NCBI GenBank assembly: GCA_903831595.1
Contig: CAIKXY010000010.1
Location: 1-51,136 of the forward strand
Reading direction: 5' to 3'
DNA: 51,136 nt
Source of the DNA: an uncultured bacterium
Lineage (GTDB): Bacteria > Patescibacteriota > Minisyncoccia > Phycocordibacterales > GWA1-40-21
This document shows, in pieces, positions 6,972 to 51,136 of the stretch (its first letter is position 1; every line of letters starts with the position of its first letter). Both the position numbers and the translations under genes were made by a program. Below the pieces are notes generated by a model. The model made no database searches. It had not been told where the DNA came from and was given only the letters and a program-made list of their open reading frames with translations.

Positions 6972-7007
6972 AACAAAGAGCGGCGCCGAAGGCGCCGCTC
7001 TTTGTTT
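6971..7007. terminator. bidirectional GC-rich hairpin terminator
   Basis: aaacaaagagcggcgcc-gaa-ggcgccgctctttgttt between convergent genes. The stem core agagcggcgcc is identical to the terminator at 31726-31750. Confidence 0.7.
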
Positions 7008-21766: not shown

Positions 21767-24700
21767 ATGAAAAAAATATTTATTTCACTTTTTGTTTTAA
21801 TTATATTTGGATTATTTTTTACAAATACGGTATTTGCACAAACAAATAACTTTGGCTCTTTGTCTGGCGGGGTAGTTGTTGCAACTGTCAGTATAAATAA
21901 TGCAAAAATTGTTTCGCAGAATGATAGGGATTTTGTTATTTCTTTTGATATTTCAAACAAAATTGGATCTCAGTCAAAAGTAAAATATTCTATTCAGTTG
22001 GTAAAAATTTCATCATTAGCCCAAACTATTTTTGACGAAAAATTTTATGATGAAGCACTTTTTTTAAGTGAAAATATGACTATTCATAAAACAGTCAATT
22101 ATATTGTACCCTCATCAGTTTCAGCTGGTACATATACTTTATACATAAGAAGTCAAAATGCCAGTGGCTTACCACTTTCTATTATCGGACTTGGTGACAT
22201 AAAAATCTCAGCCAACATTCTTGGCTCAATTGAGATTATTCCGAATACCTGCACTTTTAGTTATAGTCAAAACAAATATTTTGAGGCTTCTACAAATAAT
22301 AATATTTCAACCGGGTATATAAATGCAAAATGTAAGGTGAAAAACACTTTTTTGAAAGACACACCAATGGTTTTGGATTTTGTTACAAGAAGTCCATCAG
22401 TTTTTGGTAACATTATTCCTATATTTGGGAGCTCGACAAGGAATATACTAATTAAAAAAGGGACCAATGATGTAACAATTATGATGCCAAAAGCGAAGAA
22501 ACCACAATATTATAATTTATCATTTCACCTCACTTCTACTGATACAAAAATTTTATCAAACACTATTTCATATGATTACTTTATTGCCGGAGAGCAAGGA
22601 ATAATAAAAAATGTTGTTTTTGATAAAACTTATTACAAATCTGGCGATACAGCAAATGTGCAAATATATTCAAGTCAGTCGAGTACTAGCACAATTTCAG
22701 CAATTATTCGAGGTAGTTCCGGTGAATATTGTAGTGCCACATCAAGCAAGGTAGTTTCAAGTGTTTCAATTACAAATCTTTTAATTCCAATTGAAAAAAA
22801 TTGTCTAAATCCTAAAGCCGGCGTCATTTTGTCTGCAATGAATGGAAAAATACTTGATTCGAATAATTTGCAAATTATCACGACTACTGGTGTAACATCA
22901 AAAAGGGCACCAGCTTTACCAATAACTATTGTTATTCTGATTTTAATAATATTTTTACTCTTAATTATTGGAATTTTAATTTATAAAAATAAATCACGGG
23001 GATTAAAAGTGATAATTTTAATTTTATTTTGTTTTAGTGCTTTTAGCTTAAAAGACAAAATTACTTTTGCTGAGGGTATAGCTTTTTTCCCAGAAATTAA
23101 CATCCAAGGTCCTGGTTCGGTTGGCTTTGCTTACTCAACTGATTTGAAACCATATGTGAGTTTTTATTGTGATATATATAAAAATGGTGCACTCTGGGTT
23201 GCAAATGCTAATGGTTGGCATCCTGGAAATTGGGCTACACCATCTGGTAAAGTAATCCAGTTGGGTGCGTGGGATATGGTTACCAGCAACACAAATTATT
23301 TGATGGCATGTAGAAATGCTCACACTGGTGCTTCGATATCAACAGAACCAAGTGGTGGCTATGATATACCCCCCGGTAACCAATCAGTGCCGCAGCCAGT
23401 ATATCCACCGATTGATCCTACTACTCAAGGGTATTTACCATATGATGGGCCAGATACTGGTGGTCAGACTGGGCCAGCAATTTCAGATTTAACTGCAAGT
23501 ATGAATCCCGTAGAGTATAATGGTTCAACGCAAGTTTCTGCCAACGTTAGTAACTCAAGTTTTTGTGTGATAGATGGCCCCGATGGTTCATGGGTGTATT
23601 CTGATGTGGCTAACCCAATTAAAATTGTTTTGTATCAGAATAATTTATCCTTCAATGCCACTTTTAATGCTTACTGTGTTGGTTTAAATAATAATGCCGT
23701 GGCTAATTCACCAGCTTTGTATGTATCTGTAGAACCATATATTCCACCTGCGCAGACAGGCACTATAGGATTAAGTGCCATTCCCACCACAGTATCATAC
23801 GGAGGAGACACGATTGTCACCACTGATATAAGTAGTCTAAATAATATTAGCAGTTGTGCGATGACAAGTAGCCAAGGAGGAACCATCGTTTATGATTTTA
23901 GTCATTTTTTTTCTGTACCAAAAAGTATTAGTGTGTATTCTAACAATATGACATTAGATACGACTTTTCAGACAGAGTGTTATGACTCTGATGGATTTCA
24001 CTCCTATTTTTCTGTACCTTTAACAGTAAATGTTTTACCTGAATCTTTTAATGTTACTTTATCTCCTGCAAGTTCAACAGTAAATAAGGGAGATTCTGTA
24101 AAAGTAAATTGGAACGCAAATGAGTCTGGTAGTATTTGCCAAATCACAACTGATGATACAAACATCCAATCATATTCAAACCTTTCAGCAAGTGACATGT
24201 CTGCCGGTGTAAGAGTTGGGCCAATCACAAGTACAACAACAGTTAGTATTGAATGTCAGAATAAAACGACGAGTGCATCAGCAGCGGGGGCAATCCAAGG
24301 TATTGATCCTATACTTGCACCATTTTTGTCTTTGTACATCATACCTCAAGGTGATTCTTTTGGGTCAGCAGGATTTTACACAAATTTTGATAGTAGAAGT
24401 ATCCCGTATGACAACCTTGTTTCTGGCTATCAGCAAGGACAACAAGTCACAATACTTAACCCAATATTGCCGAACACACCATTTCCTAATCAAATAGATG
24501 ATATATCAGTTCTTTATAACCAAAACCAAGTCGGGTGTTTGGGTGATTATTGTGCCTCAATAAATATCGATAGCGTTGACCATCCTTACGGTGGCATTAT
24601 CTCACTTCATCTTAATGACGGTGGAGAAGGATATTCGGTAGGAGATCAACCATTAATTATGTCAATGACTGCAGGGCAAGGTGGGGGTAATGTGAAAGTC

Positions 24701-31725: not shown

Positions 31726-31750
31726 AGAGCGGCGCCTACGGCGCCGCTCT
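31726..31750 (+). terminator. GC-rich hairpin terminator (same stem as 6971-7007)
   Basis: agagcggcgcc-tac-ggcgccgctct followed by tctgctttt. Confidence 0.7.
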
Positions 31751-34440: not shown

Positions 34441-34848
34441 AGTATTAGTATAAAAATACATGAGCGATATTTTAAATTTTACAAATTTGATAGCTTACCA
34501 AAAAGCTCATACATTAGTACTTGAAATTTATAAAATTACCAGCAAATTTCCTAAAACTGAGCAATTCTGTTTGGTAAACCAGATAAGAAGAGCTGGAATT
34601 TCTGTTACGTCAAATATTGCCGAAGGTTTTGCCCGCATGACCGCCAAAGACAAAATTCATTTTTATGGAATGTCTCGCGGATCACTTTTAGAATTACAAA
34701 GTCAAATATTTATTGGAAAAGATTTAAATTATTTGTCAACAGAAGATTATAAAAATACTGAAGAAAAAATCACGGAGGTAAATAAATTACTTTTAGGTAT
34801 AATTAAATCAGCAAAAAATTACTAATACTAATACTTTATACTAATACT
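34441..34848. repeat. 14-bp perfect inverted repeat bracketing the four-helix-bundle gene
   Basis: agtattagtataaa (34441-34454) and tttatactaatact (34835-34848), embedded in AGTAT(A/T)AGTAT word repeats. Confidence 0.7.
34460..34825 (+). CDS. four-helix-bundle protein (23S rRNA intervening-sequence protein / Avd-like family)
   Basis: 121 aa. AYQKAHTLVLEIYKITSKFPKTEQFCLVNQIRRAGISVTSNIAEGFAR...FYGMSRGSLLELQSQ is the family signature. Confidence 0.85.
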   Translation: MSDILNFTNLIAYQKAHTLVLEIYKITSKFPKTEQFCLVNQIRRAGISVTSNIAEGFARMTAKDKIHFYGMSRGSLLELQSQIFIGKDLNYLSTEDYKNTEEKITEVNKLLLGIIKSAKNY

Positions 34849-35631
34849 ATGAATTATATCGATATACATTCTCATCTAAGTTTTGCTGATTACAAGCAAG
34901 ATCTTGTTTCTGTGATAGAAAAAATGAAAAGTGAAGGTGTCTCAACTATTTGCGTTGGTTCAGATTATGAAAGTTCAAAAGATTCCGTAGAAATTGCTGA
35001 AAAAAACGAAAATATTTTTGCTTGCATCGGACTCCACCCAACTGGGAAAGATGGGGAAATTTTTGATGAGAAAAAATATGAAGAACTTGTAAAAAGTCCG
35101 AAAGTTGTATCAATAGGTGAGTGTGGGCTGGATTATTTTAGATTAGCCGGCAATATAGTTGAACAAAAAAAATATCAGAAGAAAGAATTTATAAAACAAA
35201 TTGAATTTGCTATCAAATATGACAAACCATTAATGCTCCATATACGAGATGCATATGAAGACGCTTATGAAATATTAAAAAAATACAACCTGCCTGCGCA
35301 GGCAGGCGGAAAGGTAAGAGGAAATATGCATTTTTTTGCCGGTAGTCTCGAATGGGCAAAAAAGTTTATTGATTTAGGTTTTACGATATCTTTTACTGGT
35401 GTTATTACTTTCGCTCGCCAATATGATGAAGTTATAAAAAATATTCCGCTTAATAAAATTCATGCAGAGACAGACGCACCGTTTGTTGCACCAATTCCTT
35501 ATAGAGGGAAGAGAAATGAACCAACTTATGTGGTGGAGGTAGTCAAAAAAATCGCTGAAATTCGTGGGGAAGACTTTGAGAAGGTAAGGTTGCAACTTTT
35601 AGAGAATGCCAAGAGAGTATTTAGTATATAG
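34849..35631 (+). CDS. TatD family metal-dependent hydrolase (DNase)
   Basis: 260 aa with IDIHSHL, ECGLDY, LHIRDA and HAETDAPF motifs. Confidence 0.9.
   Translation: MNYIDIHSHLSFADYKQDLVSVIEKMKSEGVSTICVGSDYESSKDSVEIAEKNENIFACIGLHPTGKDGEIFDEKKYEELVKSPKVVSIGECGLDYFRLAGNIVEQKKYQKKEFIKQIEFAIKYDKPLMLHIRDAYEDAYEILKKYNLPAQAGGKVRGNMHFFAGSLEWAKKFIDLGFTISFTGVITFARQYDEVIKNIPLNKIHAETDAPFVAPIPYRGKRNEPTYVVEVVKKIAEIRGEDFEKVRLQLLENAKRVFSI
35289..35306. repeat. 18-nt perfect GC-rich palindrome cctgcctgcgcaggcagg inside the TatD-family gene (copy 1)
   Basis: Identical over 20 nt (aacctgcctgcgcaggcagg) to 38621-38640. It is translated NLPAQAG in both genes. Confidence 0.9.
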
Positions 35632-35684
35632 AATACAGTATAAAGTATAAAAAATGCCTTTATTTATAGCCATTTTCTGTGCTA

Positions 35685-35713
35685 TTGACACGCGAGCCCA
35701 AAGGGTGTATAAT
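35685..35713 (+). promoter_or_regulatory. consensus sigma70 promoter for DGR-1 target gene
   Basis: TTGACA (35685-35690), a 17-nt spacer, then TATAAT (35708-35713). Confidence 0.6.
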
Positions 35714-35758
35714 TGTGGCTAGTAATAAATAGGTTCTTTTATAAACTAAATTGAAAAA

Positions 35759-35811
35759 ATAGTCATAGCCAAAAGCTCCTAATTTTTTTGGAAACTTTTG
35801 GCTATGACTAT
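35759..35811 (+). promoter_or_regulatory. 17-bp perfect hairpin in the 5' leader of the DGR-1 target gene
   Basis: atagtcatagccaaaag (35759-35775) pairs with cttttggctatgactat (35795-35811). Confidence 0.5.
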
Positions 35812-35877
35812 CAATATCCACGATACGTCAAGAGTAATTCAGCCTGTCTTATGACAGACAAAAGGGAGGATTTGACC

Positions 35878-36489
35878 ATGGATAACATGCTCAAAAAAGC
35901 ACTTCGCGATTATCGCGAACTGCGCGAACAGTTTGAAAACGTATTGTTAGGCGAAGAAAGCGAACTTTGGGAGAGAGAAGCGAGAAAGTTTCTCTCAAAA
36001 CGCCCCTGCTGGAATCAGAAAGAAAATAGCTACCTGAAGCTAATTTCTGATGGCAAAAAAGTTGTTATTGCTTCAACAGACGGCAAGGAAACTATCGCCA
36101 ATGCTCAGAAAATTTTTCCGAGCGGTATAGATTCTGATTTCAAAAACTGGAATCTCGATGTGCCGAGTACACCGACCAAGGAAACAAAAACGCAAGTTTT
36201 TGAGATGGTCAAGGACGGCATGTTCAAGGATATCTTCGGAAGTTTTGGAGAAAACTTGGACCGTCTGTGCTTCACGCAAAGCCAAATCATCTTTTTTGTG
36301 AAAAACCACGCTAAGTGGCTTCGCACTGGTGGCTATGGAACCTTCTTTCTCTTTAAAGTCGGGAAGGATTATTTCGTGGCGAACGTGTACTTGAACTCTG
36401 ATGGGCTTTACGTGTACGTGGATCGCTTCTCGTGTGGCTACGTCTGGTGTGCTGAGTACAGGCGTCGGATTGTTGTCCCACAACTGTAA
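35878..36489 (+). CDS. DGR-1 variable (target) protein
   Basis: The preferred start is ATG 35878, preceded by AAGGGAGGA. The ORF-track TTG 35788 lies inside the leader hairpin. The C-terminal approximately 38 codons are VR1. No signal peptide. Confidence 0.85.
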   Translation: MDNMLKKALRDYRELREQFENVLLGEESELWEREARKFLSKRPCWNQKENSYLKLISDGKKVVIASTDGKETIANAQKIFPSGIDSDFKNWNLDVPSTPTKETKTQVFEMVKDGMFKDIFGSFGENLDRLCFTQSQIIFFVKNHAKWLRTGGYGTFFLFKVGKDYFVANVYLNSDGLYVYVDRFSCGYVWCAEYRRRIVVPQL

Positions 36490-36496
36490 TTTTTTC
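36368..36496 (+). repeat. DGR-1 variable repeat (VR1) including IMH-like 3' end
   Basis: Ungapped alignment to TR1 (offset 458). In 36368-36479 there are 13 mismatches, all at TR adenines. Confidence 0.9.
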
Positions 36497-36531
36497 ACTT
36501 AGTTTTTTTGTCCCTTTGAAACTTGGACACT

Positions 36532-36578
36532 TTGACCCTCTGAAATCCGTAAGGAAAGTAAGGGGGTCAATTTTTTTG
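36532..36578 (+). terminator. hairpin plus T-run downstream of VR1 (terminator and/or DGR target-recognition hairpin)
   Basis: ttgaccctc (36532-36540) pairs with gggggtcaa (36562-36570). The loop contains tcc-gtaa-gga, and ttttttt follows. Confidence 0.55.
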
Positions 36579-36735
36579 TTTTAATTTGTATTTTTGTATA
36601 TAATAAAAACGCAATTATAAGCGTTTTCGGCTATGGCTTAAGACTACAATTGTATATCTATATTATTTTAGAGTTTTACCGGATATGTCTTGTAAAAGAG
36701 TGAATGGTATAAATATCTTATAAAAATAAATAAAG

Positions 36736-36764
36736 TTGGTGTAGTATTTTAGAGGACTTATAAG
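36736..36764 (+). promoter_or_regulatory. candidate promoter of the TR1 RNA
   Basis: TTGGTG (36736-36741), a 17-nt spacer, then TATAAG (36759-36764). The -10 element ends 62 nt before TR1, the same distance as at DGR-2. Confidence 0.4.
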
Positions 36765-36825
36765 TCCCGCATAAGATACAATCTGTCATGGTTTGGCGGA
36801 TGGTGATATGGGAGAAATATTGCAC

Positions 36826-36954
36826 ATAATTTCGTGGCGAACGTGAACTTGAACTCTGATGGGCTTAACGTGAACGTGAATCGCTTCTCGAATGACAACG
36901 TCTGGAATGCTGAGAACAGGCATCGGATTGTTGTCCCGAAACTAAAATATTTTC
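36826..36954 (+). repeat. DGR-1 template repeat (TR1)
   Basis: Asn-codon-rich (AAC/AAT) invariant copy of VR1. It is translated as a spurious ORF in the track (MANVNLNSDGLNVNVNRFSNDNVWNAENRHRIVVP). Confidence 0.9.
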
Positions 36955-36980
36955 TCCCGCTTATTTGGCGGGAGTTTTTT
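36954..36980 (+). terminator. hairpin plus U-run immediately 3' of TR1
   Basis: ctcccgc-ttatttg-gcgggag followed by tttttt. The avd stop codon (complement of tta 36961-36963) lies in the loop. Confidence 0.55.
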
Positions 36981-37260
36981 GTTGTAAACCTTTTTTCCAT
37001 CCACCGAGCATTCTTCCAATTTCTTCTAATTTTTCAGACAACTCAATATATTTTTCATTTGGTATCAATTTACTTTCCCATGCAAGTTGGGAGAAGAATT
37101 TTAGAGTATCTAATTTTGTTATTGTTTTTCCTAGTAGTATAATCTTTGATTCAGGAGGTAAATATACTGATGCAAAACTAAATTCTAGAATATCTAAAAA
37201 TGAACTCTCTATCTTTTGTCCAATACCAAAGCGTTCAGTTTTAGGAAAATTTCTGTGCAA
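36961..37260 (-). CDS. avd: DGR accessory variability determinant (Avd-like four-helix-bundle protein), 5' end ambiguous
   Basis: FPKTERFGIGQKIE...KLDTLK...EIGRMLGGW resembles Avd/IVS four-helix-bundle proteins. The TTG start at 37260 truncates helix 1, and the frame stays open upstream to the G10 tract. ATG 37345 would be in frame if the tract were one base shorter. Confidence 0.8.
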   Translation of the reverse strand: MHRNFPKTERFGIGQKIESSFLDILEFSFASVYLPPESKIILLGKTITKLDTLKFFSQLAWESKLIPNEKYIELSEKLEEIGRMLGGWKKGLQQKTPAK

Positions 37261-37319
37261 ATTTAGCCAAAATTGATAAGCATCTTTTTCTTTTGATATT
37301 ACAACGGGCGATTTCTGTA

Positions 37320-37329
37320 GGGGGGGGGG
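37320..37329. repeat. G10 homopolymer between/within the avd 5' end and RT upstream region (DGR-1)
   Basis: Direct reading: ttctgta + G10 + tcac. Confidence 0.95.
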
Positions 37330-37355
37330 TCACTTTATAGTTCATATAATTTATT

Positions 37356-38339
37356 ATGGAAATTAATTTTAATACTTACGATACTATCATATCTCTAAAA
37401 AATATTCACGAAGCTTGGCGTGAATTTATTTCTGACAAAAGATATAAAAATGATGTTGCCGAATATGCGCTTGCTCTTTCAAATAATATATCTAACTTAC
37501 ACCATGATTTGAAAAATAAAACATATATTCATTTTGGATATAAAGCTTTTTCTATTAATGACCCAAAACCAAGAAATATTCATAAAGCAATTGTGCGTGA
37601 TCGATTATTACACCATGCGATTTATAGGATTCTTTACCCTTATTTTGATAAAAAATTCATACACGATTCATACTCATGTAGAAATTTTAAAGGCACACAT
37701 AAAGCATGTAATCGTTTTAGAGATTTTGCGAGAAAAGTATCAAAAAATCACAGTAGAACATGCTGGGTTTTAAAATGTGATATAAGAAAGTTTTTTGCTT
37801 CTATAGACCATCTTATTTTGCTGAATATTTTAAAAAGACATATTTTTGATGTTGATACTCTATGGCTTTTAGAAAAAGTCATAGAAAGTTTTAGTAGCAC
37901 TCAAAAAGGAAAAGGCTTGCCTCTTGGGAATCTGACATCACAACTTTTGGTAAATATTTATATGAACGAGTTTGACCAATATATAAAACATACTCTTAAA
38001 ATAAAATATTATATTCGATATGCCGATGATTTTTTGGTATTAAGTGATAAAAAAGAAGAGTTGAAATCTTTGCTCGTTTTAATAGATACATTTTTAAAAG
38101 AAAGGCTTGCTTTATTACTGCATCCAAATAAAGTATTTATAAAAACATTTGCTTCCGGGGTTGATTTTCTCGGTTGGGTGAATTTTTCTGACCATAGAGT
38201 TTTGAGGACAGCCACAAAAAGAAAAATGTTTAGAAAATTAAAGGAAAGTAACAAAAAAGAAACCATTCAGTCGTATTTGGGTATGTTAAAACATGGAAAT
38301 GGTTTTAAACTTAGAAATAGAGTAACCAATTTTTTGTAA
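37356..38339 (+). CDS. DGR-type reverse transcriptase
   Basis: 327 aa with RT motifs including LPLGNLTSQLLVNIYMNEFD (the DGR-typical SQ motif) and IRYADDFLVL (YxDD). Confidence 0.95.
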   Translation: MEINFNTYDTIISLKNIHEAWREFISDKRYKNDVAEYALALSNNISNLHHDLKNKTYIHFGYKAFSINDPKPRNIHKAIVRDRLLHHAIYRILYPYFDKKFIHDSYSCRNFKGTHKACNRFRDFARKVSKNHSRTCWVLKCDIRKFFASIDHLILLNILKRHIFDVDTLWLLEKVIESFSSTQKGKGLPLGNLTSQLLVNIYMNEFDQYIKHTLKIKYYIRYADDFLVLSDKKEELKSLLVLIDTFLKERLALLLHPNKVFIKTFASGVDFLGWVNFSDHRVLRTATKRKMFRKLKESNKKETIQSYLGMLKHGNGFKLRNRVTNFL

Positions 38340-38377
38340 TTTTCAATTTTTACAATTTTCTGTTATAGTTTTTTGTA

Positions 38378-39265
38378 ATGGAACCAAAAATTTTAAAAAC
38401 GTTACCAAGCGCAGATTACGAGCTTATTGATAGCGGAAATGAAGAAAAGCTTGAACGCTATGGGAAATATGTTTTGAGAAGACCAGATCCACAAGCTCTG
38501 TGGAATAAAACCTTGTCTGAAATTGAATGGAAAAATGCAGACGCTACTTTTGGAGCTGATAAAAAAACATGGAAAAAGAAAAATGCCAGTATGCAAAATG
38601 AGTGGCAAATCTCTTTTGATAACCTGCCTGCGCAGGCAGGTTTAAAATTTAATATTAAACCAACAGCTTTTAAACATACTGGAGTTTTCCCAGAGCAAGA
38701 ACCAAATTGGATATTTATAAAAGATAAAATTAAAAACGCACAAAGACCAATAAAGGTTCTGAATCTTTTTGGATATACAGGCGGAGCAACTTTGGCCGCA
38801 CTTTCTGCTGGCGCGGAAGTCACACATGTTGATGGTTCAAAATCTGCAATCACTTGGGCAAAAGAAAACGCTGAACTTAGCGGGCTTGATAAAAAACCAG
38901 TTCGCTGGATTATTGATGACGCAAGAAAATTTGTGATGAGAGAAATAAAACGTGGTGGAAAATATGATGGAATAATAATGGACCCGCCATCATTTGGCAG
39001 GGGAGGAAAAGGCGAAATTTGGAAAATTGAAAGCGATTTTATAAAACTTTTAGAAGAATGTTCAAAAATACTTTCTGATAATCCACTTTTCTTTATAATA
39101 AATGGTTATGCTGCAGGATATTCTTCGCAAGCTTACTATAATGCTTTGAAACCTCTTGTAGAAAAATATGGAGGCCAATTTGAAATAGGGGAACTTACAA
39201 TACAAGAATCAAAAGCCGGCAGACTTTTACCTTGTGGTATTTTTGCCAGATGGAGTAAAAATTAA
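38378..39265 (+). CDS. class I SAM-dependent methyltransferase (RlmI/YwbD-like, PF10672-type)
   Basis: VLNLFGYTGGATLAALSAGAEVTHVD (SAM motif I) and IIMDPPSFG (motif IV). Confidence 0.8.
   Translation: MEPKILKTLPSADYELIDSGNEEKLERYGKYVLRRPDPQALWNKTLSEIEWKNADATFGADKKTWKKKNASMQNEWQISFDNLPAQAGLKFNIKPTAFKHTGVFPEQEPNWIFIKDKIKNAQRPIKVLNLFGYTGGATLAALSAGAEVTHVDGSKSAITWAKENAELSGLDKKPVRWIIDDARKFVMREIKRGGKYDGIIMDPPSFGRGGKGEIWKIESDFIKLLEECSKILSDNPLFFIINGYAAGYSSQAYYNALKPLVEKYGGQFEIGELTIQESKAGRLLPCGIFARWSKN
38623..38640. repeat. 18-nt perfect GC-rich palindrome cctgcctgcgcaggcagg inside the methyltransferase gene (copy 2)
   Basis: Identical 20-mer to 35287-35306, in the same reading frame (NLPAQAG). Confidence 0.9.
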
Positions 39266-45772: not shown

Positions 45773-47095
45773 ATGTCGTCAATGATTAAAAAAGTAGTAA
45801 AACCAAATATTTGGGATGTTGTTGTAATTGGTGGAGGGCCCGCTGGGCTTATGTCTGCTTCTATTGCTGCAAAATATGGTGCTAAAGTGCTACTTTTGGA
45901 GAAGAATGATGTTATGGGCAAGAAGCTACTTCTTACAGGCGGAGGTAGATGTAACCTTACAAATGCGGACCCAGATGTTAGAAATTTTGTTTCAAAATTT
46001 GGGAAAAAAGGGGATTTTCTTTTCTCACCACTTTCAATTTTTGGCACTGATGATACTATAAGATTTTTTGAAAAGCTTGGAATTAAAACAAAAGTGGAGC
46101 CCGGTTTTAGAGTATTTCCAGAGTCTGATAATGCGCTCGATGTTTTAGGTGTTCTTACAAAACTTGCTAAAGAAAATGGAGTTGAATTCAAGCTCGGTGC
46201 ATTAGTCGCCCATATTAAAAAATCTTCTCCCCGAGGTGGAGCCTCGGGGAAGATTTCCTCTGTTATTCTTGAGAACGGCGAAGAAATAAAAGCGAAAAAT
46301 TTTATACTAGCGACTGGTGGAAAATCTCATCCAGAAACTGGTTCAACAGGTGATGGTTTCAAATGGCTAAAAGAAATCGGGCATAAAGTTGTAGACTCAA
46401 ATCCGTCACTTGTTCCAATAAAATTAAGAGAAGCATGGATAGCTGAGCTTGCTGGTATTACACTTGAAAATGTCGGCGTATCTATATGGGTTTTGAAAAA
46501 AGAAACAGATAAGTCTGAATGGAAAAAAGTTTTGGGTAAAAAAGGAAGAATACTTTTCACACATGTGGGTCTTTCAGGGCCAACTATATTAAATATGAGT
46601 AAAACGGTCGGTGATTTGCTTAAAGAAAAGAAAGAGGTAAAAATTGCTATCGATTTTTTCCCAGGCGTTGGTCTTGATATTATGCATGAGAGAATGATAA
46701 AACTATATGAACAGAATCCAAAAAAGAAAATTAAAAATCTTATACCAGTCGAAGTTCCTGAAAAAATTTATTTAAAAATTTTAGAAATTATGGGTATGGA
46801 TGGGGAATGGTTTGCAAATGAAATAAAAAGAGCGGAAAGAATTGCAATTGTGGAAATGTTAAAAATGTTTAAGCTCACTGCCGACAGCTTGCTCGGATAT
46901 GACAAGGCGATTGTTTCTTCTGGCGGAGTTGATTTAAATGAAGTTGATTTTAAAGAATTTAAATCAAAATTATATGACAATTTGTTTTTGGTAGGAGATA
47001 TTTTAGATTTTGATAGGTCTTCTGGTGGGTATTCATTACAACTTTGCTGGACAAGCGGGTATATAGCGGGGAAAAGTTCAGCAAAAAATTGTTAA
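45773..47095 (+). CDS. NAD(P)/FAD-dependent oxidoreductase, HI0933/YhiN/BaiN family
   Basis: VVVIGGGPAGLMSA dinucleotide fold and TGGGRCNLTN family motif. Confidence 0.85.
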   Translation: MSSMIKKVVKPNIWDVVVIGGGPAGLMSASIAAKYGAKVLLLEKNDVMGKKLLLTGGGRCNLTNADPDVRNFVSKFGKKGDFLFSPLSIFGTDDTIRFFEKLGIKTKVEPGFRVFPESDNALDVLGVLTKLAKENGVEFKLGALVAHIKKSSPRGGASGKISSVILENGEEIKAKNFILATGGKSHPETGSTGDGFKWLKEIGHKVVDSNPSLVPIKLREAWIAELAGITLENVGVSIWVLKKETDKSEWKKVLGKKGRILFTHVGLSGPTILNMSKTVGDLLKEKKEVKIAIDFFPGVGLDIMHERMIKLYEQNPKKKIKNLIPVEVPEKIYLKILEIMGMDGEWFANEIKRAERIAIVEMLKMFKLTADSLLGYDKAIVSSGGVDLNEVDFKEFKSKLYDNLFLVGDILDFDRSSGGYSLQLCWTSGYIAGKSSAKNC

Positions 47096-47151: not shown

Positions 47152-48975
47152 ATGGAAAACCTCGACTTCCTCAAAAATAAATACAATCTACACAATACAG
47201 AAGAAGTAGAAAAAGCAGCAAAACGCACAGAAAAGCGCACTGGAGAAAAAGTGCCACAAAATCCAAAAGATCAGATACAAAACTACCTAGACAGATTCAC
47301 CGAAATTATTGAAAGAAAGGAACCAGGGAAAAGAGAAAGGGGAATAGAAGCTATAAAAAGTGTTATAGATGACAAGTACATTATTAAACCTGAAGAAATT
47401 CCAGAAAGCTATTATGAAAACCAAAGGCGAATCGCTCGTGAACAAGGCCATGGAGATGTTGAAATAACCGATGAGGCAAGAAATCAACTCAAAGAAGTCA
47501 TAATAAAAGATCAAAAAGATTCTCTAGACAACTGGATTGACTACCTATCATCAAAAGATGCCACATATCCAGACTGGCTCAAGTATTTTGCTATTAGAAA
47601 TCTTCTCGGAATGGGAGAATATGATAAAGAAAAGAAACAATTCACTAAAAGATCAAAAGGCACAGTAAAGCCATTCCCAGACATAAACAGAGAAGCATTA
47701 GCATATGTACTAGATGCAATAGAGAAGAAACATAAAGGAATACCAAACGATAAAGACCCAGAATTCCAGGCTCTTCTACGAGGAGAAAATTTTGCTAAAC
47801 TCTATGCATGGGCTATAGACAAAGCTACACCAGAATCGGAGAAAGGACTTACAAACATAAAGGGTGAATGGGTAAAGTATAGACAAGGCAAAGACCACAT
47901 GCCACTCGTAGAATCTTTGCAAGGTCATGGAACAGGATGGTGCACAGCAGGAGAGTCAACAGCAAAAGCTCAACTGGAAGGCGGTGACTTCTATGTATAT
48001 TATTCAGAAGATAAAAATGGAAAATCAAATGTTCCAAGAGCTGCTATTCGTATGCAAGGAAATGAAATAGGTGAAGTCAGAGGTATAGGAGCAGACCAAA
48101 ACCTAGACCCATACATTGGTGATGTAGTAAAAAAGAAACTTACAGAATTTCCAGATGGAGACAAATACAAAAAGAAAGAAGCTAATATGAAACTTCTTAC
48201 TCAAATAGATAACAAAACAAAACTAAAACAACCTCTTATAAAAGATGAACTCATTTTTCTATATGAAGTAAACACTGAAATCGAAGGCTTTGGATATCAA
48301 AGAGATCCTCGCATAAAAGAAATAATCGACCAAAGAAATCCAAAAGAAGATGCACCTATAGTTTTTGATTGTCAGCCAAATCAAATCGCATATTCTGAGA
48401 AAAAAATAAATAAAGATACAAAAGCTTATGTTGGACCTCTATTCAAGGGAATATTCCAAACAAACATTGACCATATAGGAACTTCTTTCCCAGAGGGAAT
48501 GTTGAAAAAGATGGAAGCTGAAATTGGTGGAAAAAATAAAAAAGAACTCGAGAAAGAACTAAAGGAAAATAAAGTTTGGATTTCGGATTATGCTAAAAGC
48601 ATGATGAACAATTCTGATTTCACTACATCAAAAAAATTAGAACAATTAAATCTCGCTCGTATCACTGTAAAATCTCTCGGTTTTCCAAATGGCGCCACAA
48701 CTGATGAAATATACAAAAAAGCGGAAGAACTTGGTTTAGAATTATGTCCAGCAGAAGTCGGTCCCCAGCTTCGTTTGCAGTATTTGGACCAGCCAAATGG
48801 AGAATATATTTTTATAGGAATGAAACAAATTTCTGACTCCGTTGGCTACCCGAGCGTGTTCAATGTGCTCCGCTACGACGATGGCAGGCTGGAGCTCGAC
48901 GGCCGCAGCGCTAAGCCTGACGATAGGTGGGGTGGCGGCCGCGGGTTTGTGTTCCGCATGCCTCGCAAGTCTTAG
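47152..48975 (+). CDS. DGR-2 variable (target) protein
   Basis: 607 aa with no signal peptide. The C-terminal approximately 47 codons are VR2. The last ~100 aa resemble the C-terminus of the DGR-1 target. Confidence 0.85.
   Translation: [607 protein letters not shown]
48829..48968 (+). repeat. DGR-2 variable repeat (VR2)
   Basis: Ungapped alignment to TR2 (offset 446). There are 22 mismatches, all at TR adenines. The invariant 3' block is gtttgtgttccgcatgcctcgcaa. Confidence 0.9.
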
Positions 48976-49185
48976 AACTTATCTCTTTTATAACTTAGCT
49001 CTAGCACTTAGATACTTAGAACTTTGTTCTTGAAAATTTTTTGATATAATAATTTTGGTAGTAGGTGAATATGCGAGAGATTACGATTTCTCGCTACCGA
49101 ATCCAGTATCCATAAGTTGAGAATGTTTGTGATTATGATTTCAAACAGAGGGCTTATGTAGACGCTTCAATAAAAATGAAGATAC

Positions 49186-49213
49186 TTGGTGCAAAATATT
49201 ATGGCATTATTAT
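49186..49213 (+). promoter_or_regulatory. candidate promoter of the TR2 RNA
   Basis: TTGGTG (49186-49191), a 16-nt spacer, then TATTAT (49208-49213). The -10 element ends 62 nt before TR2. Confidence 0.4.
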
Positions 49214-49274
49214 GCCAAATTAGATTCAATCCCGAGAGCATTCAAGGGGTGGTGGTAAAGAAGATATTTTGCAC

Positions 49275-49414
49275 ATTTCTGACTCCGATGGCAACCCGAA
49301 CGTGTTCAATGTGAACCGCAACGACGATGGCAAGCTGAAGCTCAACGACAACAACGCTAAGCCTGACAATAGGTGGAATGACAACAACGAGTTTGTGTTC
49401 CGCATGCCTCGCAA
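49275..49414 (+). repeat. DGR-2 template repeat (TR2)
   Basis: AAC/AAT-rich copy of VR2, seen in the track as the spurious ORF ...SDSDGNPNVFNVNRNDDGKLKLNDNNAKPDNRWNDNNEFVFRMPR. Confidence 0.9.
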
Positions 49415-49426
49415 CTCTTTTCATTT

Positions 49427-49457
49427 CTCTCCCATTTATTTGGGAGAGTTTTGTTTT
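49427..49457 (+). terminator. hairpin plus U-run immediately 3' of TR2
   Basis: ctctccca-tttatt-tgggagag followed by ttttgtttt. It is homologous in position and shape to 36954-36980. Confidence 0.55.
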
Positions 49458-49775
49458 CCCCCACACCTTTCATTTTATCCTCTCAAATCATATAATGATG
49501 GTTATGTTTTATCTCTATATATTGAAAAGCACTAAGGATGATAATTTGTATATAGGCTCTACAAATGATTTGAGACGAAGACTTTCTGAACATAGTAATG
49601 GAAAAGTACGTTCAACAAAATCTCGTGTCCCATTTGAACTTAGATATTACGAATCATTTTTCAAAGAGATAGACGCAAGGAAAAGAGAGTTTTCGCTTAA
49701 AAAAGATGGTAAAGCACTCGGACAATTGAAAAGAAGAATTTCAGAAAGTCTTAAATAAAATGAAAGGTGTGGGGG
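49458..49775 (+). mobile_element. 318-bp TIR-bounded element encoding a small GIY-YIG protein, inserted in DGR-2
   Basis: 21-bp perfect terminal inverted repeats (49458-49478 cccccacacctttcattttat / 49755-49775). They are flanked by 9-bp direct repeats, ttttgtttt (49449-49457) and ttttgtctt (49776-49784). The element is absent at the homologous DGR-1 site. Confidence 0.75.
49495..49758 (+). CDS. GIY-YIG nuclease family protein (small UPF0213/YhbQ-like)
   Basis: MMVMFYLYILKS...NLYIGSTNDLRRRLSEH...YYESF...KREFSLKK shows GIY-YIG motif spacing. It is about 87 aa, and the stop codon lies within the right TIR. Confidence 0.8.
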   Translation: MMVMFYLYILKSTKDDNLYIGSTNDLRRRLSEHSNGKVRSTKSRVPFELRYYESFFKEIDARKREFSLKKDGKALGQLKRRISESLK

Positions 49776-50110
49776 TTTTGTCTTAATATCTGCCCATTCC
49801 AACCACCTAGCATTTTTCCAATTTCATCTAAATGGAGAGATAAAGCGATATACTTTTTATTATCCAAAGATTTTGTTTCCCACAAAACCATAAGCAAGAT
49901 TTTCAATGTGTCTAATTTTCTGATGGCAACAGATATATAAGTTCTTTTTTCTTCTTTTGGCAGGAAACTTGCTACAGAAATTGCTTCTATGATTTCTATA
50001 AATAATGTGTCAATTCTATTTCCTAGAGAATATCTATGTGGTTTGGGCAGAATTTGATAATATTCATACCAAAGAATATAAGCAGTTTTTACTTTCTGTA
50101 AAAGTGGCAA
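49751..50110 (-). CDS. avd: DGR accessory variability determinant (Avd-like), 5' end ambiguous
   Basis: Paralog of 36961..37260 (…RKLDTLKILL…EIGKMLGGW…). It has a TTG start in the track. The frame continues through the G9 tract, and upstream ATGs (50136, 50139, 50145) are out of frame by one base. Confidence 0.8.
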   Translation of the reverse strand: MPLLQKVKTAYILWYEYYQILPKPHRYSLGNRIDTLFIEIIEAISVASFLPKEEKRTYISVAIRKLDTLKILLMVLWETKSLDNKKYIALSLHLDEIGKMLGGWNGQILRQNPHTFHFI

Positions 50111-50123
50111 AAGTTTCTGTAGA

Positions 50124-50132
50124 GGGGGGGGG
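50124..50132. repeat. G9 homopolymer at the avd 5' end / RT upstream region (DGR-2)
   Basis: Direct reading: ttctgtaga + G9 + tcat. Confidence 0.95.
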
Positions 50133-50168
50133 TCATCATAGTCATGTTTTTTGTGTTGTAATTATATT

Positions 50169-51136
50169 ATGTTTAAAATTCAATTCATTAATAAATATAA
50201 AGATATCATTGAAATGGAAAATCTCCTAGAAGCGTGGAGAGAATTTGTTGTAGGTAAAAAATTAAGAAAGGATGTGGAAGATTTTCAAAGACATTTAATG
50301 AATAATATTATTTCACTTCATAAAGATTTAGAGACAAAAACATATAAACATTCTTCCTATGAGGCATTTAATATTTCCGACCCAAAACCAAGAAATATAC
50401 ATAAAGCAAAAGTGAGAGATAGACTGCTACATCATGCTTTATACAGGAAACTTTATCCGTTTTTTGATAAAACATTCATAGCTGATTCGTATTCTTGCAG
50501 GGTCGGAAAGGGAACTCATAAAGCGTTGGAGAGATTTAAGTCTTTTTCAAATAAAGTATCAAAAAATAATACAAAAACGGTTTGGATTTTGAAATGTGAT
50601 ATCAGAAAGTTTTTTGCTTCAATAGACCAAGAAGTTTTGTTGAGAATATTGAATAGTTATATACCAGATAAAGATATTATATCTATTTTATCTGAAATTA
50701 TTGGTAGTTTTTATTCCACTGAAAAAGGTAAAGGTTTGCCTCTTGGAAATCTAACGTCACAACTTTTGGTAAATATTTATATGAACGAATTTGACCAATT
50801 TGTAAAACACAAACTAAAAGCAAAATATTATATACGATATGCAGATGATTTTGTGATTTTTTCTGAGAATAAAAATAAATTAGAAGACTTACTCTTATGT
50901 ATAAGAGTGTTTCTTTGTGAAAAATTAAAATTAGAATTGCATCCAAATAAAGTTTTTATAAAAACTCTGGCCTCGGGCGTTGATTTTCTTGGTTGGGTGA
51001 ATTTTTCTGACCATAGAGTTTTGAGAACAACTACAAAAAGAAAAATGTTTAGAAATATAAAAATGAAAGAAGGAAAAATAGAGACGGTTCAATCATATCT
51101 TGGGTTGTTGAGCCATGGGAATGCTCAAAAATTGAG
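50169..51136 (+). CDS. DGR-type reverse transcriptase, 3' end outside window
   Basis: Open frame from ATG 50169 to the window edge. The translation MFKIQFINKYKDIIEMENLLEAWREF...LPLGNLTSQLLVNIYMNEFDQF...IRYADDFVIF is highly similar to RT 37356..38339. It is missing from the ORF track because no stop codon lies in the window. Confidence 0.9.
   Translation, partial: MFKIQFINKYKDIIEMENLLEAWREFVVGKKLRKDVEDFQRHLMNNIISLHKDLETKTYKHSSYEAFNISDPKPRNIHKAKVRDRLLHHALYRKLYPFFDKTFIADSYSCRVGKGTHKALERFKSFSNKVSKNNTKTVWILKCDIRKFFASIDQEVLLRILNSYIPDKDIISILSEIIGSFYSTEKGKGLPLGNLTSQLLVNIYMNEFDQFVKHKLKAKYYIRYADDFVIFSENKNKLEDLLLCIRVFLCEKLKLELHPNKVFIKTLASGVDFLGWVNFSDHRVLRTTTKRKMFRNIKMKEGKIETVQSYLGLLSHGNAQKL

Follow-up and report, generated by a model that had tools for sequence, protein, structure and literature searches.

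The window, that is, the whole 51,136-bp stretch of DNA analysed, has a GC content of about 33%, and the names of the sources of close homologs point to a Patescibacteria-like genome. It contains, on the same strand, the genes for a TatD-family hydrolase and for an RlmI-like methyltransferase, with an island here named DGR-1 between them (Table 1). The island includes a target gene with a VR, the corresponding TR, a bAvd-like gene and an RT gene; there are 19 differences between VR and TR, and 17 of these fall at TR adenines. Each of the two genes flanking the island is interrupted by one copy of the same short palindrome.

Table 1. Palindrome copies, their host genes and the neighbouring DGR-1 island in the window.
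Feature	Position	Strand	Details
Host gene 1, TatD-family hydrolase	34849..35631	+	260 aa; Pfam TatD_DNase PF01026, E=7.6e-73
Palindrome copy 1	35289..35306	.	Between bases 2 and 3 of codon 147 (TatD-family gene); adds LPAQAG, residues 148-153
DGR-1 island (context, not part of the element)	35673..38355	+	Alignment of relatives stops at ~35672 and resumes at ~38356
DGR-1 target gene with VR	VR 36368-36498		TR 36826-36956
bAvd-like gene	36961-37260	-	Pfam bAvd
RT	37356-38339		Pfam RVT_1; stop at 38339
Host gene 2, class I SAM-dependent methyltransferase, RlmI-like	38378..39265	+	295 aa; Methyltrans_SAM PF10672, Cons_hypoth95 PF03602
Palindrome copy 2	38623..38640	.	Between bases 2 and 3 of codon 82 (RlmI-like methyltransferase gene); adds LPAQAG, residues 83-88

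The 20-mer AACCTGCCTGCGCAGGCAGG has two exact matches in the window, at 35287-35306 and 38621-38640, the positions at which the preliminary description had reported it. No match was obtained in 100 dinucleotide-preserving shuffles, even with three mismatches tolerated, which agrees with the earlier view that chance identity is negligible. Its 18-mer core, CCTGCCTGCGCAGGCAGG, which can also be written as (CCTG)2C·G(CAGG)2, is indeed a perfect 9+9 palindrome, without spacer. Because copy 2 happens to be flanked by AA and TT, its perfect palindrome grows to 22 bp (38621-38642). A scan of the window with the 16-nt core, allowing up to three mismatches, found no third copy, apart from an unrelated match with three mismatches at 23744. 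The 18-mer is predicted to form a stable hairpin, with -11 kcal/mol as RNA and -6.5 as DNA.

Both copies are inside plus strand ORFs, whose translation confirmed that they are read in the same phase, as N-LPAQAG. The protein context is KKY-N-LPAQAG-GKVRGN in the TatD-family hydrolase and SFD-N-LPAQAG-LKFN in the methyltransferase, and the residue stretches across the insert in the two host proteins are ..KKYNLPAQAGGK.. and ..SFDNLPAQAGLK... The GC-rich codons of the LPAQAG insert are atypical for the window. In the AlphaFold model of the TatD-family protein, residues 149-153 have pLDDT values below 50 and are placed in a loop between helix 136-144 and strand 158-160, while in that of the methyltransferase residues 83-86, also below 50, are placed in a turn between strands 76-80 and 89-93. 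The models thus put both insertions in surface loops of low confidence, as proposed earlier.

Alignment of the TatD and RlmI-like orthologs, the check proposed in the preliminary description, identified LPAQAG as an insertion and not as a conserved peptide, since most close orthologs lack it and others have it elsewhere. Among the 120 best orthologs of each gene, six TatD and five methyltransferase sequences carry the insert at the window's site, and LPAQAG-like inserts were found at three further TatD sites and at two to three further methyltransferase sites. Empty TatD sites read TAC GAC/GGA AAA (L151) and TAT GAT/GGA AAA (L123), against TAC AA[18-mer]C GGA AAG in the window, and the empty methyltransferase site reads GAT AAT TTA AAA (L123), against GAT AA[18-mer]T TTA AAA. 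Codon alignments of filled and empty alleles (window, L121, L151, L152, L123, L166, L168 and L169) show a net gain of exactly 18 bp and no target-site duplication; judged from these alignments, each window copy is a nucleotide-precise 18-bp insertion of CCTGCCTGCGCAGGCAGG. Substitutions within orthologous inserts number one in L121, two in L152 and one in L168, and the decayed copies remain in frame. Parsimony on NJ trees requires at least three gain or loss changes at the same site, for both genes. One and the same methyltransferase site carries the insert in three separate clades, which could be due to homologous exchange among relatives instead of repeated insertion.

The 18-mer is not restricted to these two genes. 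A scan of species-representative genomes (596 Gb) recovered at least 120 stretches with 125 copies, about 96 of them in loci with less than 50% GC, against a chance expectation of ~0.8 copies over the whole collection at 40% GC; taxonomic proportions and per-genome counts from this collection are lower bounds. Among the matches listed, the low-GC carriers are nearly all Patescibacteria of many classes, together with a few Bacteroidota, and the cultured isolates Litoribacter ruber and Rosettibacter primus have the 18-mer too. Contigs of 600-840 kb contain one to three copies among the matches listed, and the window contains two in 51 kb. A Hamming scan detected about nine perfect copies, and seven with one or two mismatches, among those not used for locus finding. 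The mosaic intergenic repeats of Sphingobacteriales bin43 include the 18-mer as a module, and local clustering and tandem copies were found in L153-L165. A metagenome scan for two copies within 30 nt of each other returned 13 contigs with direct tandems, near-tandems and doubly interrupted tRNA-Gln genes, with no long array that could be a source. The literature was searched for the 18-mer sequence, for LPAQAG and for palindromic in-frame insertions in Patescibacteria, and no publication describing the element was found, in line with the remark in the preliminary description that nothing of this kind had been reported for such a genome.

The genomic context of the copies was evaluated in mechanically defined stop-to-stop stretches of at least 150 codons. 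Among the matches listed, 55 of the 96 low-GC copies are located in such long ORFs and ~43% are non-coding. The 55 copies (again among the matches listed) are read as LPAQAG in 41 cases, as PACAGR in 11 and as CLRRQ in three (binomial p=5e-10), whereas pure R^Y targeting would give 18.6, 11.9 and 24.5, respectively (chi-square against the observed counts, p=1e-10). The count of further copies that had been called for thus returned many in other genomes, with a strongly biased coding phase. As the LPAQAG phase accounts for 41 of the 55 long-ORF copies among the matches listed, the insert seems to be translated and subject to a selective filter. The reading frame is never broken, since the element is 18 bp long and contains no stop codon in any phase. 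The flanks of the 18-mer show an R/Y preference at -1/+1 only; among the matches listed, a purine occupies position -1 in 80% of 192 half-flanks (p=5e-18), and does so in 73% of the non-coding copies.

The palindrome was also observed interrupting copies of the tRNA-Gln gene that adjoin homing-endonuclease genes (GIY-YIG or HNH); a GIY-YIG protein is encoded in the window as well, at 49504-49758. The tRNA-Gln genes of L038, L158, L159/L162 and L165 contain one or two 18-mers, one site lying between positions 10/11 and the other in the anticodon loop (37/38 or 35/36), and a perfect cloverleaf is restored once the 18-mers are removed. In L038, L158 and L159/L162 an intact tRNA-Gln gene with the same anticodon adjoins the interrupted copy, and in L159 the interrupted gene differs from its intact neighbour by paired, stem-preserving changes. 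Three Rfam scans covering 54 loci found no rRNA, and no Rfam family other than tRNA-Gln, overlapping the palindrome.

The two copies are located on either side of the DGR-1 island, 3.3 kb apart and with no others in the 51 kb. From this bracketing, the preliminary description had raised the possibility that they serve in recombination or recognition of the island. The second copy starts 282 nt past the RT stop, in close agreement with the 284 bp originally given, and L168, a DGR-bearing relative, also has the methyltransferase copy. However, the notion that the palindromes are a boundary or recombination site of the island is contradicted by the data and retains hardly any probability. Synteny with relatives places the island boundaries 270-370 bp inside the two copies, within the TatD-methyltransferase spacer, and not at the palindromes. 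The segment between the copies holds the 3' end of the TatD-family gene and the 5' end of the methyltransferase gene, so that recombination between the copies would destroy both genes. In one relative both genes carry the LPAQAG insertion, only 18 nt separates them and there is no DGR, while L121, L151 and L152 have one insertion each and no DGR, and in L166 the palindrome copy adjoins a different island. Because relatives carry one or both insertions without a DGR, and because the island edges are inside the copies, the association between palindrome and DGR-1 is coincidental. The palindromes also differ from the DGR cis elements (the IMH and the hairpin downstream of VR), which sit at the 3' end of VR/TR: they are inside other genes, 1.06 kb upstream and 2.1 kb downstream of VR. 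The spacer itself is a hot spot for island insertion in relatives.

The window copies are probably, though by no means certainly, independent precise insertions of a dispersed 18-bp palindromic mini-element that many Patescibacteria and some Bacteroidota carry at low copy number. The comparisons show that the element enters as exactly 18 bp, without target-site duplication and preferably between a purine and a pyrimidine. Genic copies survive mainly after codon position 2, where they add the flexible LPAQAG and usually leave the flanking residues unchanged, and where the site is a surface loop; once inserted, copies drift by substitution. The two window copies are older than, or independent of, the DGR-1 island, which landed later in the inter-gene spacer, and at both sites they are presumably neutral passengers with no cis function. 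Mobility presumably relies on a protein acting in trans that would recognise the palindrome, probably binding as a dimer, either to the 9+9 arms or to the extruded hairpin or cruciform, and would cut the element out and insert it flush at both ends. A mobile tRNA-Gln/homing-endonuclease cassette carrying copies may contribute to horizontal spread.

Several points weigh on the mini-element. Its apparent low copy number per genome, unusual for a selfish repeat, counts against it, and the presence of an identical 18-mer in very divergent classes would call for a recogniser that is conserved or for horizontal transfer that is frequent. We know of no transposition chemistry that handles an 18-bp substrate without target duplication. 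No transposase or RAYT/Y1 transposase gene was found in the window, and when the 1,663 ORFs located up to 2 kb from copies were clustered all against all, no neighbour gene family, transposase or RAYT proved recurrent; only the tRNA-Gln/GIY-YIG context recurs. A bolder version, which we regard as rather doubtful, is that the 18-mer is the smallest mobile DNA yet seen, cut out flush and reinserted without target duplication by a structure- or sequence-specific nuclease conserved across the superphylum. The small GIY-YIG family, present beside the interrupted tRNA-Gln copies and in the window, is one candidate for this nuclease. If true, precise excision would be a routine event, and this could explain the intact cloverleaves of tRNA-Gln copies with one or two inserts.

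Other origins were weighed against the mini-element. It is unlikely that the copies are filler from break repair, in which a cellular or selfish nuclease would recurrently generate a blunt, self-complementary 18-bp duplex or hairpin that is captured when a double-strand break is joined, so that copies mark past breaks. Flush, unduplicated and orientation-free insertion is what would be expected from blunt ligation of a self-annealed palindromic oligonucleotide, and this origin also agrees with the recurrence of the same two tRNA-Gln places beside GIY-YIG or HNH genes, at which breaks would be anticipated, with the location of the window copies on either side of the hot-spot spacer, and with the local clusters and direct tandems. 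No source of such an oligonucleotide is known, however; most copies have no endonuclease gene nearby, an end-joining system would be required in Patescibacteria, and the R^Y flank preference needs a separate explanation. A REP-like cis element useful to the host, that is, a binding site or structural signal (DNA uptake signal, recombination or Chi-like site, mRNA hairpin) kept for a conserved protein, would account for the identity of the 18-mer across divergent lineages, for its stable hairpin, and for the mosaic intergenic repeats of bin43, which resemble REPs in BIMEs. It is nevertheless quite improbable: presence or absence among close orthologs and decay at orthologous sites mean that no particular copy is conserved, and the positions within ORFs track peptide tolerance and not gene boundaries. 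DNA uptake sequences (DUS/USS) are very dense, at about one per kb, and the two copies in the 51,136 bp of the window, a density of ~2 per 51 kb or less, are far below this.

Removal at the RNA level, with the hairpin acting as an intervening sequence that is taken out of transcripts and the ends rejoined, would make the insert harmless in tRNA and mRNA alike, and the restored cloverleaves of the interrupted tRNA-Gln genes, together with the stem-preserving pairs that distinguish the two L159 copies, point in this direction. Yet the interrupted copy can be dispensable where an intact tRNA-Gln with the same anticodon lies alongside (L165 is too short to tell), and the strong bias for the LPAQAG phase, with CLRRQ disfavoured, argues for translation in mRNAs; decayed copies also keep the frame. 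Inspection by eye found no bulge-helix-bulge context at the anticodon-loop insertions, and the Rfam scans placed no copy in rRNA or another family. This explanation is very unlikely. Finally, a convergent functional peptide or an assembly or adapter artefact has a next to negligible probability. Peptide identity, and nothing further, favours it. Against it, the codons are identical despite ~3000 synonymous encodings of LPAQAG and are GC-rich, atypical for a genome of 33% GC, and further copies of the 18-mer lie outside coding sequence or are read in another phase. The same sites are moreover filled in assemblies from independent projects (JGI, ENA, NCBI and Logan), and substitutions in the inserts follow divergence.

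Further ideas about the source of the palindrome were tried and rejected. The idea that a larger transposon, with terminal repeats of 9 bp, had left the 18-mer as its excision footprint was discarded after inspection of ~830 kb of low-GC loci, in which solitary half-sites were almost always decayed or variant whole palindromes and did not represent the ends of larger units. For a phage vehicle, an IMG/VR scan gave 25 stretches, nearly all of them high-GC chance matches, with only three low-GC loci. Telomerase-like addition of CCTG, which would build the arms, was dropped since variants with unequal arm repeats or a CCGG centre were too few.

Most known cases of palindromes inserted in frame come from Rickettsia and yeast mitochondria, and their mechanism has been obscure for decades in either group. 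The 18-mer is far simpler than either, being a single invariant palindrome with exact boundaries, no duplication, an R^Y preference and a measurable phase filter, and its occurrence across the Candidate Phyla Radiation and in two cultured isolates makes the movement of short palindromes directly testable. In carrier genomes it repeatedly gives rise to six-residue indels in proteins that are otherwise conserved; tRNA genes that it interrupts can escape gene finders, and it can pass for the boundary of a neighbouring mobile island, as with DGR-1.

The 18-mer shares features with several known systems. MITEs are 50-500 bp long, derived from IS elements and flanked by target-site duplications. Those such as Correia, ERIC and BOX are, like the 18-mer, non-autonomous, composed largely of inverted repeats and tolerated inside ORFs, with occasional in-frame fusion (PMC10969869). 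The terminal inverted repeats of MITEs have their counterpart in the 18-mer, which as a whole is a 9+9 inverted repeat, but it is only 18 bp long and, from the comparison of filled and empty alleles, lacks a target-site duplication. With the REP/REPIN-RAYT system it has in common a short GC-rich palindromic stem-loop, the lack of target duplication and the mosaic repeats of bin43. REPs, which are mobilised by RAYT transposases, are imperfect palindromes of 20-40 bp with a GTAG or CGTC tag, extragenic, species-specific and present in tens to hundreds of copies (PMC3733652). The 18-mer and its flanks carry no GTAG or CGTC tag, and it is often genic, low in copy number and of the same sequence across phyla. 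A RAYT (Y1 transposase) gene was neither found in the window nor recurrent within 2 kb of copies.

The GC clusters of yeast mitochondria, among them the in-frame insertions in var1 and the Magnusiomyces 'byp' elements, are considered to move, by a mechanism that is unknown (PMC8811140). Like the 18-mer, they are short GC-rich palindromes in a very AT-rich genome, polymorphic among strains and found, besides their mostly intergenic sites, in frame in coding sequence (PMC8811140). They are longer and variable in sequence, with terminal AG/TAG repeats read as target duplications, and the byps are skipped by the ribosome (PMC8811140). The 18-mer insert appears to be translated, is unduplicated and has a bacterial host.

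The parallel drawn in the preliminary description was with the Rickettsia palindromic elements (RPEs), which are ~150 bp long, form about ten families and are confined to Rickettsia (PMC10969869). Membership in this group is not supported: RPEs of ~100-150 bp encode roughly 30-50 residues (PMC10969869), against 18 bp and six residues here, and the 18-mer, a perfect palindrome without spacer found in Patescibacteria and some Bacteroidota, occurs in a different phylum. The analogy itself holds: in each case palindromes have entered housekeeping genes that are unrelated to one another, in frame and in a reduced genome, and the peptide they add is specific to the family and sits where the protein fold can accommodate it; non-coding copies are known for RPEs as well as for the 18-mer (PMC10969869).

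The 20-nt sequence AACCTGCCTGCGCAGGCAGG is matched exactly in two unrelated genes, encoding a TatD-family hydrolase and an RlmI-like SAM methyltransferase (see table), as the preliminary description had it; it had no match in 100 dinucleotide-preserving shuffles, even with 3 mismatches permitted. The core common to both copies, CCTGCCTGCGCAGGCAGG (hereafter the 18-mer), is the perfect 9+9 palindrome previously claimed, without spacer, and in copy 2 the palindrome reaches 22 bp because AA and TT flank it. Both copies are indeed read in the same phase, giving N-LPAQAG. The arms of the 18-mer consist of tetranucleotide repeats, (CCTG)2C and G(CAGG)2, and as RNA it folds into a hairpin of -11 kcal/mol whose 7-bp stem is capped by a GCGC loop. 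The window has a GC content of about 33%, and the other strong GC-rich hairpins found in it by a hairpin scan were only terminator-like stems between A and T runs. Close homologs of both host proteins carry the source names Paceibacterota, Minisyncoccia or Patescibacteria, which assigns the window to a CPR bacterium.

Positions of the 18-mer copies, their host genes and associated features (L-numbers are genome or metagenome loci retrieved for comparison)
Feature	Sequence	Position	Strand	Remarks
20-mer, copy 1	window	35287-35306		in + strand TatD-family ORF; exact match
20-mer, copy 2	window	38621-38640		in + strand RlmI-like methyltransferase ORF; exact match
Host gene 1	window	34849-35631	+	TatD-family hydrolase
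Host gene 2	window	38378-39265	+	RlmI-like SAM methyltransferase
DGR-1 VR; TR	window	36368-36498; 36826-36956
Second DGR	window	48816-51136
Second DGR, VR	window	~48816-48985		end of ORF 47152-48975
Second DGR, TR	window	~49262-49431
GIY-YIG nuclease gene	window	49504-49758		between second DGR's TR and bAvd-like gene
Second DGR, bAvd-like gene	window	49751-50110	-
Second DGR, RT	window	from near 50124		continues past window end
23S_rRNA_IVP / bAvd-like gene	window	34460-34825		four-helix bundle; between MetRS and TatD
Interrupted tRNA-Gln copy or fragment	L158	800-925
Interrupted tRNA-Gln copy or fragment	L159	4225-4345	-
Interrupted tRNA-Gln copy or fragment	L162	1-130	-
Interrupted tRNA-Gln copy or fragment	L165	1660-1784	-
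Interrupted tRNA-Gln copy or fragment	L038	6731-6830	-
Interrupted tRNA-Gln copies or fragments	L027; L037; L042; L110	1724-1770; 3529-3575; 361-400; 720-760
Direct tandem 18-mers	L153; L155; L156; L160; L163; L164	2807; 2641; 1924; 804; 946; 10254		36 nt; LPAQAGLPAQAG when coding
18-mer clusters	L157; L161; L164			some with 3-4 copies plus decayed ones in 2-3 kb
Palindrome variants	L016; L032; L103; L087; L075	3196; 3415 and 4803; 486; 393; 921

A conserved LPAQAG peptide was ruled out by ortholog alignment, since most orthologs lack the insert and others carry it at different positions; the peptide is an insertion. Of the 120 top-scoring orthologs per protein, 6 TatD and 5 methyltransferase sequences were filled (carried the insert) at the site used in the window, and the remainder were uninterrupted, reading ..KKY-D/E/S-GK.. 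and ..SFD-N/D-LKF.., respectively. In other orthologs, LPAQAG or a decayed form of it (such as LPARAG, LPTQAG, LPMQAG or LSAQVG) lay elsewhere, at positions 14, 148 and 155 of TatD and about 72 and 264 of the methyltransferase. In codon alignments with relatives' DNA, the empty methyltransferase allele of L123 (GAT AAT TTA AAA) contrasts with GAT AA[CCTGCCTGCGCAGGCAGG]T TTA AAA in the window and L151, and the empty TatD allele of L151 (TAC GAC GGA AAA) with TAC GA[18-mer]C GGA AAA, bearing one substitution, in L121. The window's TatD allele (TAC AA..C GGA AAG) is structured as in L121, and L166, L168 and L169 represent independent insertion events identical in structure to the window's. Filled and empty alleles differ by the 18-bp palindrome only, and no target-site duplication was found at the filled sites. 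AlphaFold2 models of the two host proteins (mean pLDDT 87 each) agree with the proposed surface-loop location: both inserts have pLDDT <50, residues 149-153 of TatD forming a loop between helix 136-144 and strand 158-160, and residues 83-86 of the methyltransferase a beta-hairpin turn.

Further copies exist across genomes, at least 125 in at least 120 stretches when one genome per GTDB species was scanned. About 96 of the matches listed lie in loci below 50% GC; the chance expectation for the whole 596-Gb collection at 40% GC is about 0.8 copies. Matches in high-GC DNA (Streptomyces, Burkholderiales, Terriglobia) fit chance occurrence. Low-GC carriers among the matches listed belong to many Patescibacteria lineages (Paceibacteria/Parcubacteria, Microgenomates groups, WWE3, Dojkabacteria, Saccharibacteria, and Kaiser-, Uhr- and Magasanikbacteria). 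A smaller set comprises Bacteroidota and relatives, namely Sphingobacteriales bin43 (at least 8 copies), a Saprospiraceae MAG and two isolates, Litoribacter ruber and Rosettibacter primus; some further MAGs are labelled Gammaproteobacteria. Copy number per genome looks low, the counts being lower bounds. Among the matches listed, 80% of the adjoining bases fit a purine before and a pyrimidine after the 18-mer (R^Y), a preference also seen at non-coding copies; apart from this, their flanking sequences are unrelated.

ORF contexts were called mechanically, and 55 of the 96 low-GC copies among the matches listed fell in long open stretches. There the LPAQAG, PACAGR and CLRRQ phases occurred 41, 11 and 3 times (p=5e-10), against 18.6, 11.9 and 24.5 expected from the R^Y preference alone with the window's codon structure (p=1e-10), a strong bias towards LPAQAG. 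The Cys/Arg-rich phase is nearly absent, indicating that inserts in genes are probably translated and their peptide filtered by selection.

Orthologous copies have drifted, with one substitution in L121, one in L168 and two in L152; among copies not used for locus retrieval, about 9 were perfect and 7 had 1-2 mismatches. Single-gene NJ trees, weak in themselves, gave at least 3 changes at a single site, which is homoplasy. A metagenome scan for two 18-mers <=30 nt apart returned direct tandems (LPAQAGLPAQAG) as well as pairs separated by 15-26 nt; some contigs held 3-4 copies in 2-3 kb. Such clustering points to reinsertion nearby or to local hot spots. Some palindrome variants have a CCGG centre or unequal CCTG/CAGG repeat numbers between arms. 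In Sphingobacteriales bin43 (JAAFJW01; L012, L033, L071, L077, L083, L102) the 18-mer forms one building block of mosaic repeats between genes, such as GCGTTAACGAYGGTAGCGG-18mer and AGCGTGTTA-18mer-TAACACGCT.

At least 5 Parcubacteria genomes carry the 18-mer at one identical tRNA-Gln site, ..GGATCG^TCTAATGGTAGGAC, between tRNA positions 10 and 11, in a 5' fragment or full-length copy adjoining an intact tRNA-Gln. The metagenome scan also found full-length copies with two inserts, the second in the anticodon loop (37/38 in L158 and L165, 35/36 in L159/L162), which ARAGORN detects only once the 18-mers are removed. In L038, L158 and L159/L162 the neighbouring tRNA-Gln is intact and shares the anticodon; L165 does not extend far enough to judge. 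The tRNA-Gln copies of L027, L038, L158, L159 and, by alignment to L027, L110 have a small GIY-YIG gene between them or next to them, and in L037 an HNH endonuclease gene takes its place. We infer that the interrupted copies are dispensable duplicates within a homing-endonuclease cassette, where the inserts may show where cleavage occurs, or may interrupt direct repeats through which the endonuclease gene would otherwise be deleted. Such a cassette could plausibly carry the 18-mer horizontally among Parcubacteria, and leaves copies in other classes unexplained.

The two window copies bracket DGR-1, a diversity-generating retroelement island, and a recombination or recognition role had been considered for them. 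DGR-1 itself was confirmed: its VR and TR differ at 19 positions, 17/19 at TR adenines, and its genes include a bAvd-like gene and an RVT_1 reverse transcriptase. Alignments of relatives to the window break off at about 35672 and resume at about 38356, which places the island within the TatD-methyltransferase spacer (window 35632-38377), with the palindromes 366 and 268 bp outside it in conserved genes. Both LPAQAG insertions are present on the contig encoding the orthologs P0013 and P0125, the TatD copy alone in L121 and L152, and the methyltransferase copy alone in L151, in each case without a DGR. The bracketing is therefore coincidental and the 18-mer is ruled out as the DGR-1 boundary. 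L168 shares the RT with the window (81% amino-acid identity) and has a DGR in the spacer and the methyltransferase copy; the methyltransferase copy of L166 adjoins a different four-gene island of 2.7 kb. In L123-L125 and the P0125 contig the spacer measures 18 nt; in L121, L151, L152 and L169 it consists of unrelated DNA, 300-480 nt long. On sequence comparison it appears to be an insertion hot spot, which is at most what the bracketing reflects. The pre-island distance between the window copies, about 590 bp, fits the local clustering elsewhere. The window also holds a second DGR, with VR/TR mismatches mostly at TR adenines. The 23S_rRNA_IVP / bAvd-like gene is lacking from the MetRS-TatD spacer in L123 and L151 and looks like a separate small insertion.

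Other palindromic elements were found in both gene families: a 66-nt in-frame insert in the L151 TatD gene, with the hairpin GAGACCTT..AAGGTCTC (L151:6861-6887), and a 55-nt in-frame element in the L123 methyltransferase gene (L123:11154-11208; also L124, L125), whose 12-bp terminal repeats ACCCTGTTAAAT recur in the unrelated loci L030:5447 and L159:5792. Genes of this clade have therefore been colonised repeatedly by such elements, and the 18-mer is smaller and more widespread than the others. In the window, two hairpins of terminator type (6977-7001 and 31726-31750), separated by 24.7 kb, have the same 11-bp GC-rich stem, AGAGCGGCGCC..GGCGCCGCTCT, with different loops, and may be another short palindromic repeat family. 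A GC-rich palindrome at 46228-46250, TCCCCGAGG-TGGAG-CCTCGGGGA, lies in an HI0933-like flavoprotein ORF (45773-47095; peptide PRGGASG) and may be an in-frame insertion of a different family.

The steps observed are a flush 18-bp gain, no duplication, R^Y preference, read-through translation, a phase filter, loop location and later drift. A putative trans-acting protein would recognise either the 9+9 palindrome itself or the hairpin or cruciform formed from it, and would cut and join at the element ends. No transposase or Y1/RAYT gene was found in the window, and no recurrent gene family was found within 2 kb of 18-mer copies. The data also fit the main rival, capture of a recurrent 18-bp duplex by break repair.

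The full-text literature outside subscription journals yielded no report of the 18-mer sequence, the LPAQAG peptide or in-frame palindromic insertions in Patescibacteria, and to that extent the claim that such elements are undescribed for this kind of genome stands. REPs carry a GTAG/CGTC tag, lie outside genes and reach high copy number (PMC3733652), none of which applies to the 18-mer; it resembles REPs within BIMEs only in Sphingobacteriales bin43. MITEs have a terminal duplication, unlike the 18-mer, and so do yeast mitochondrial GC clusters, which otherwise work alike (PMC8811140). Although size and taxon exclude the 18-mer from the Rickettsia palindromic elements, to which it had been likened, it works as they do (PMC10969869).
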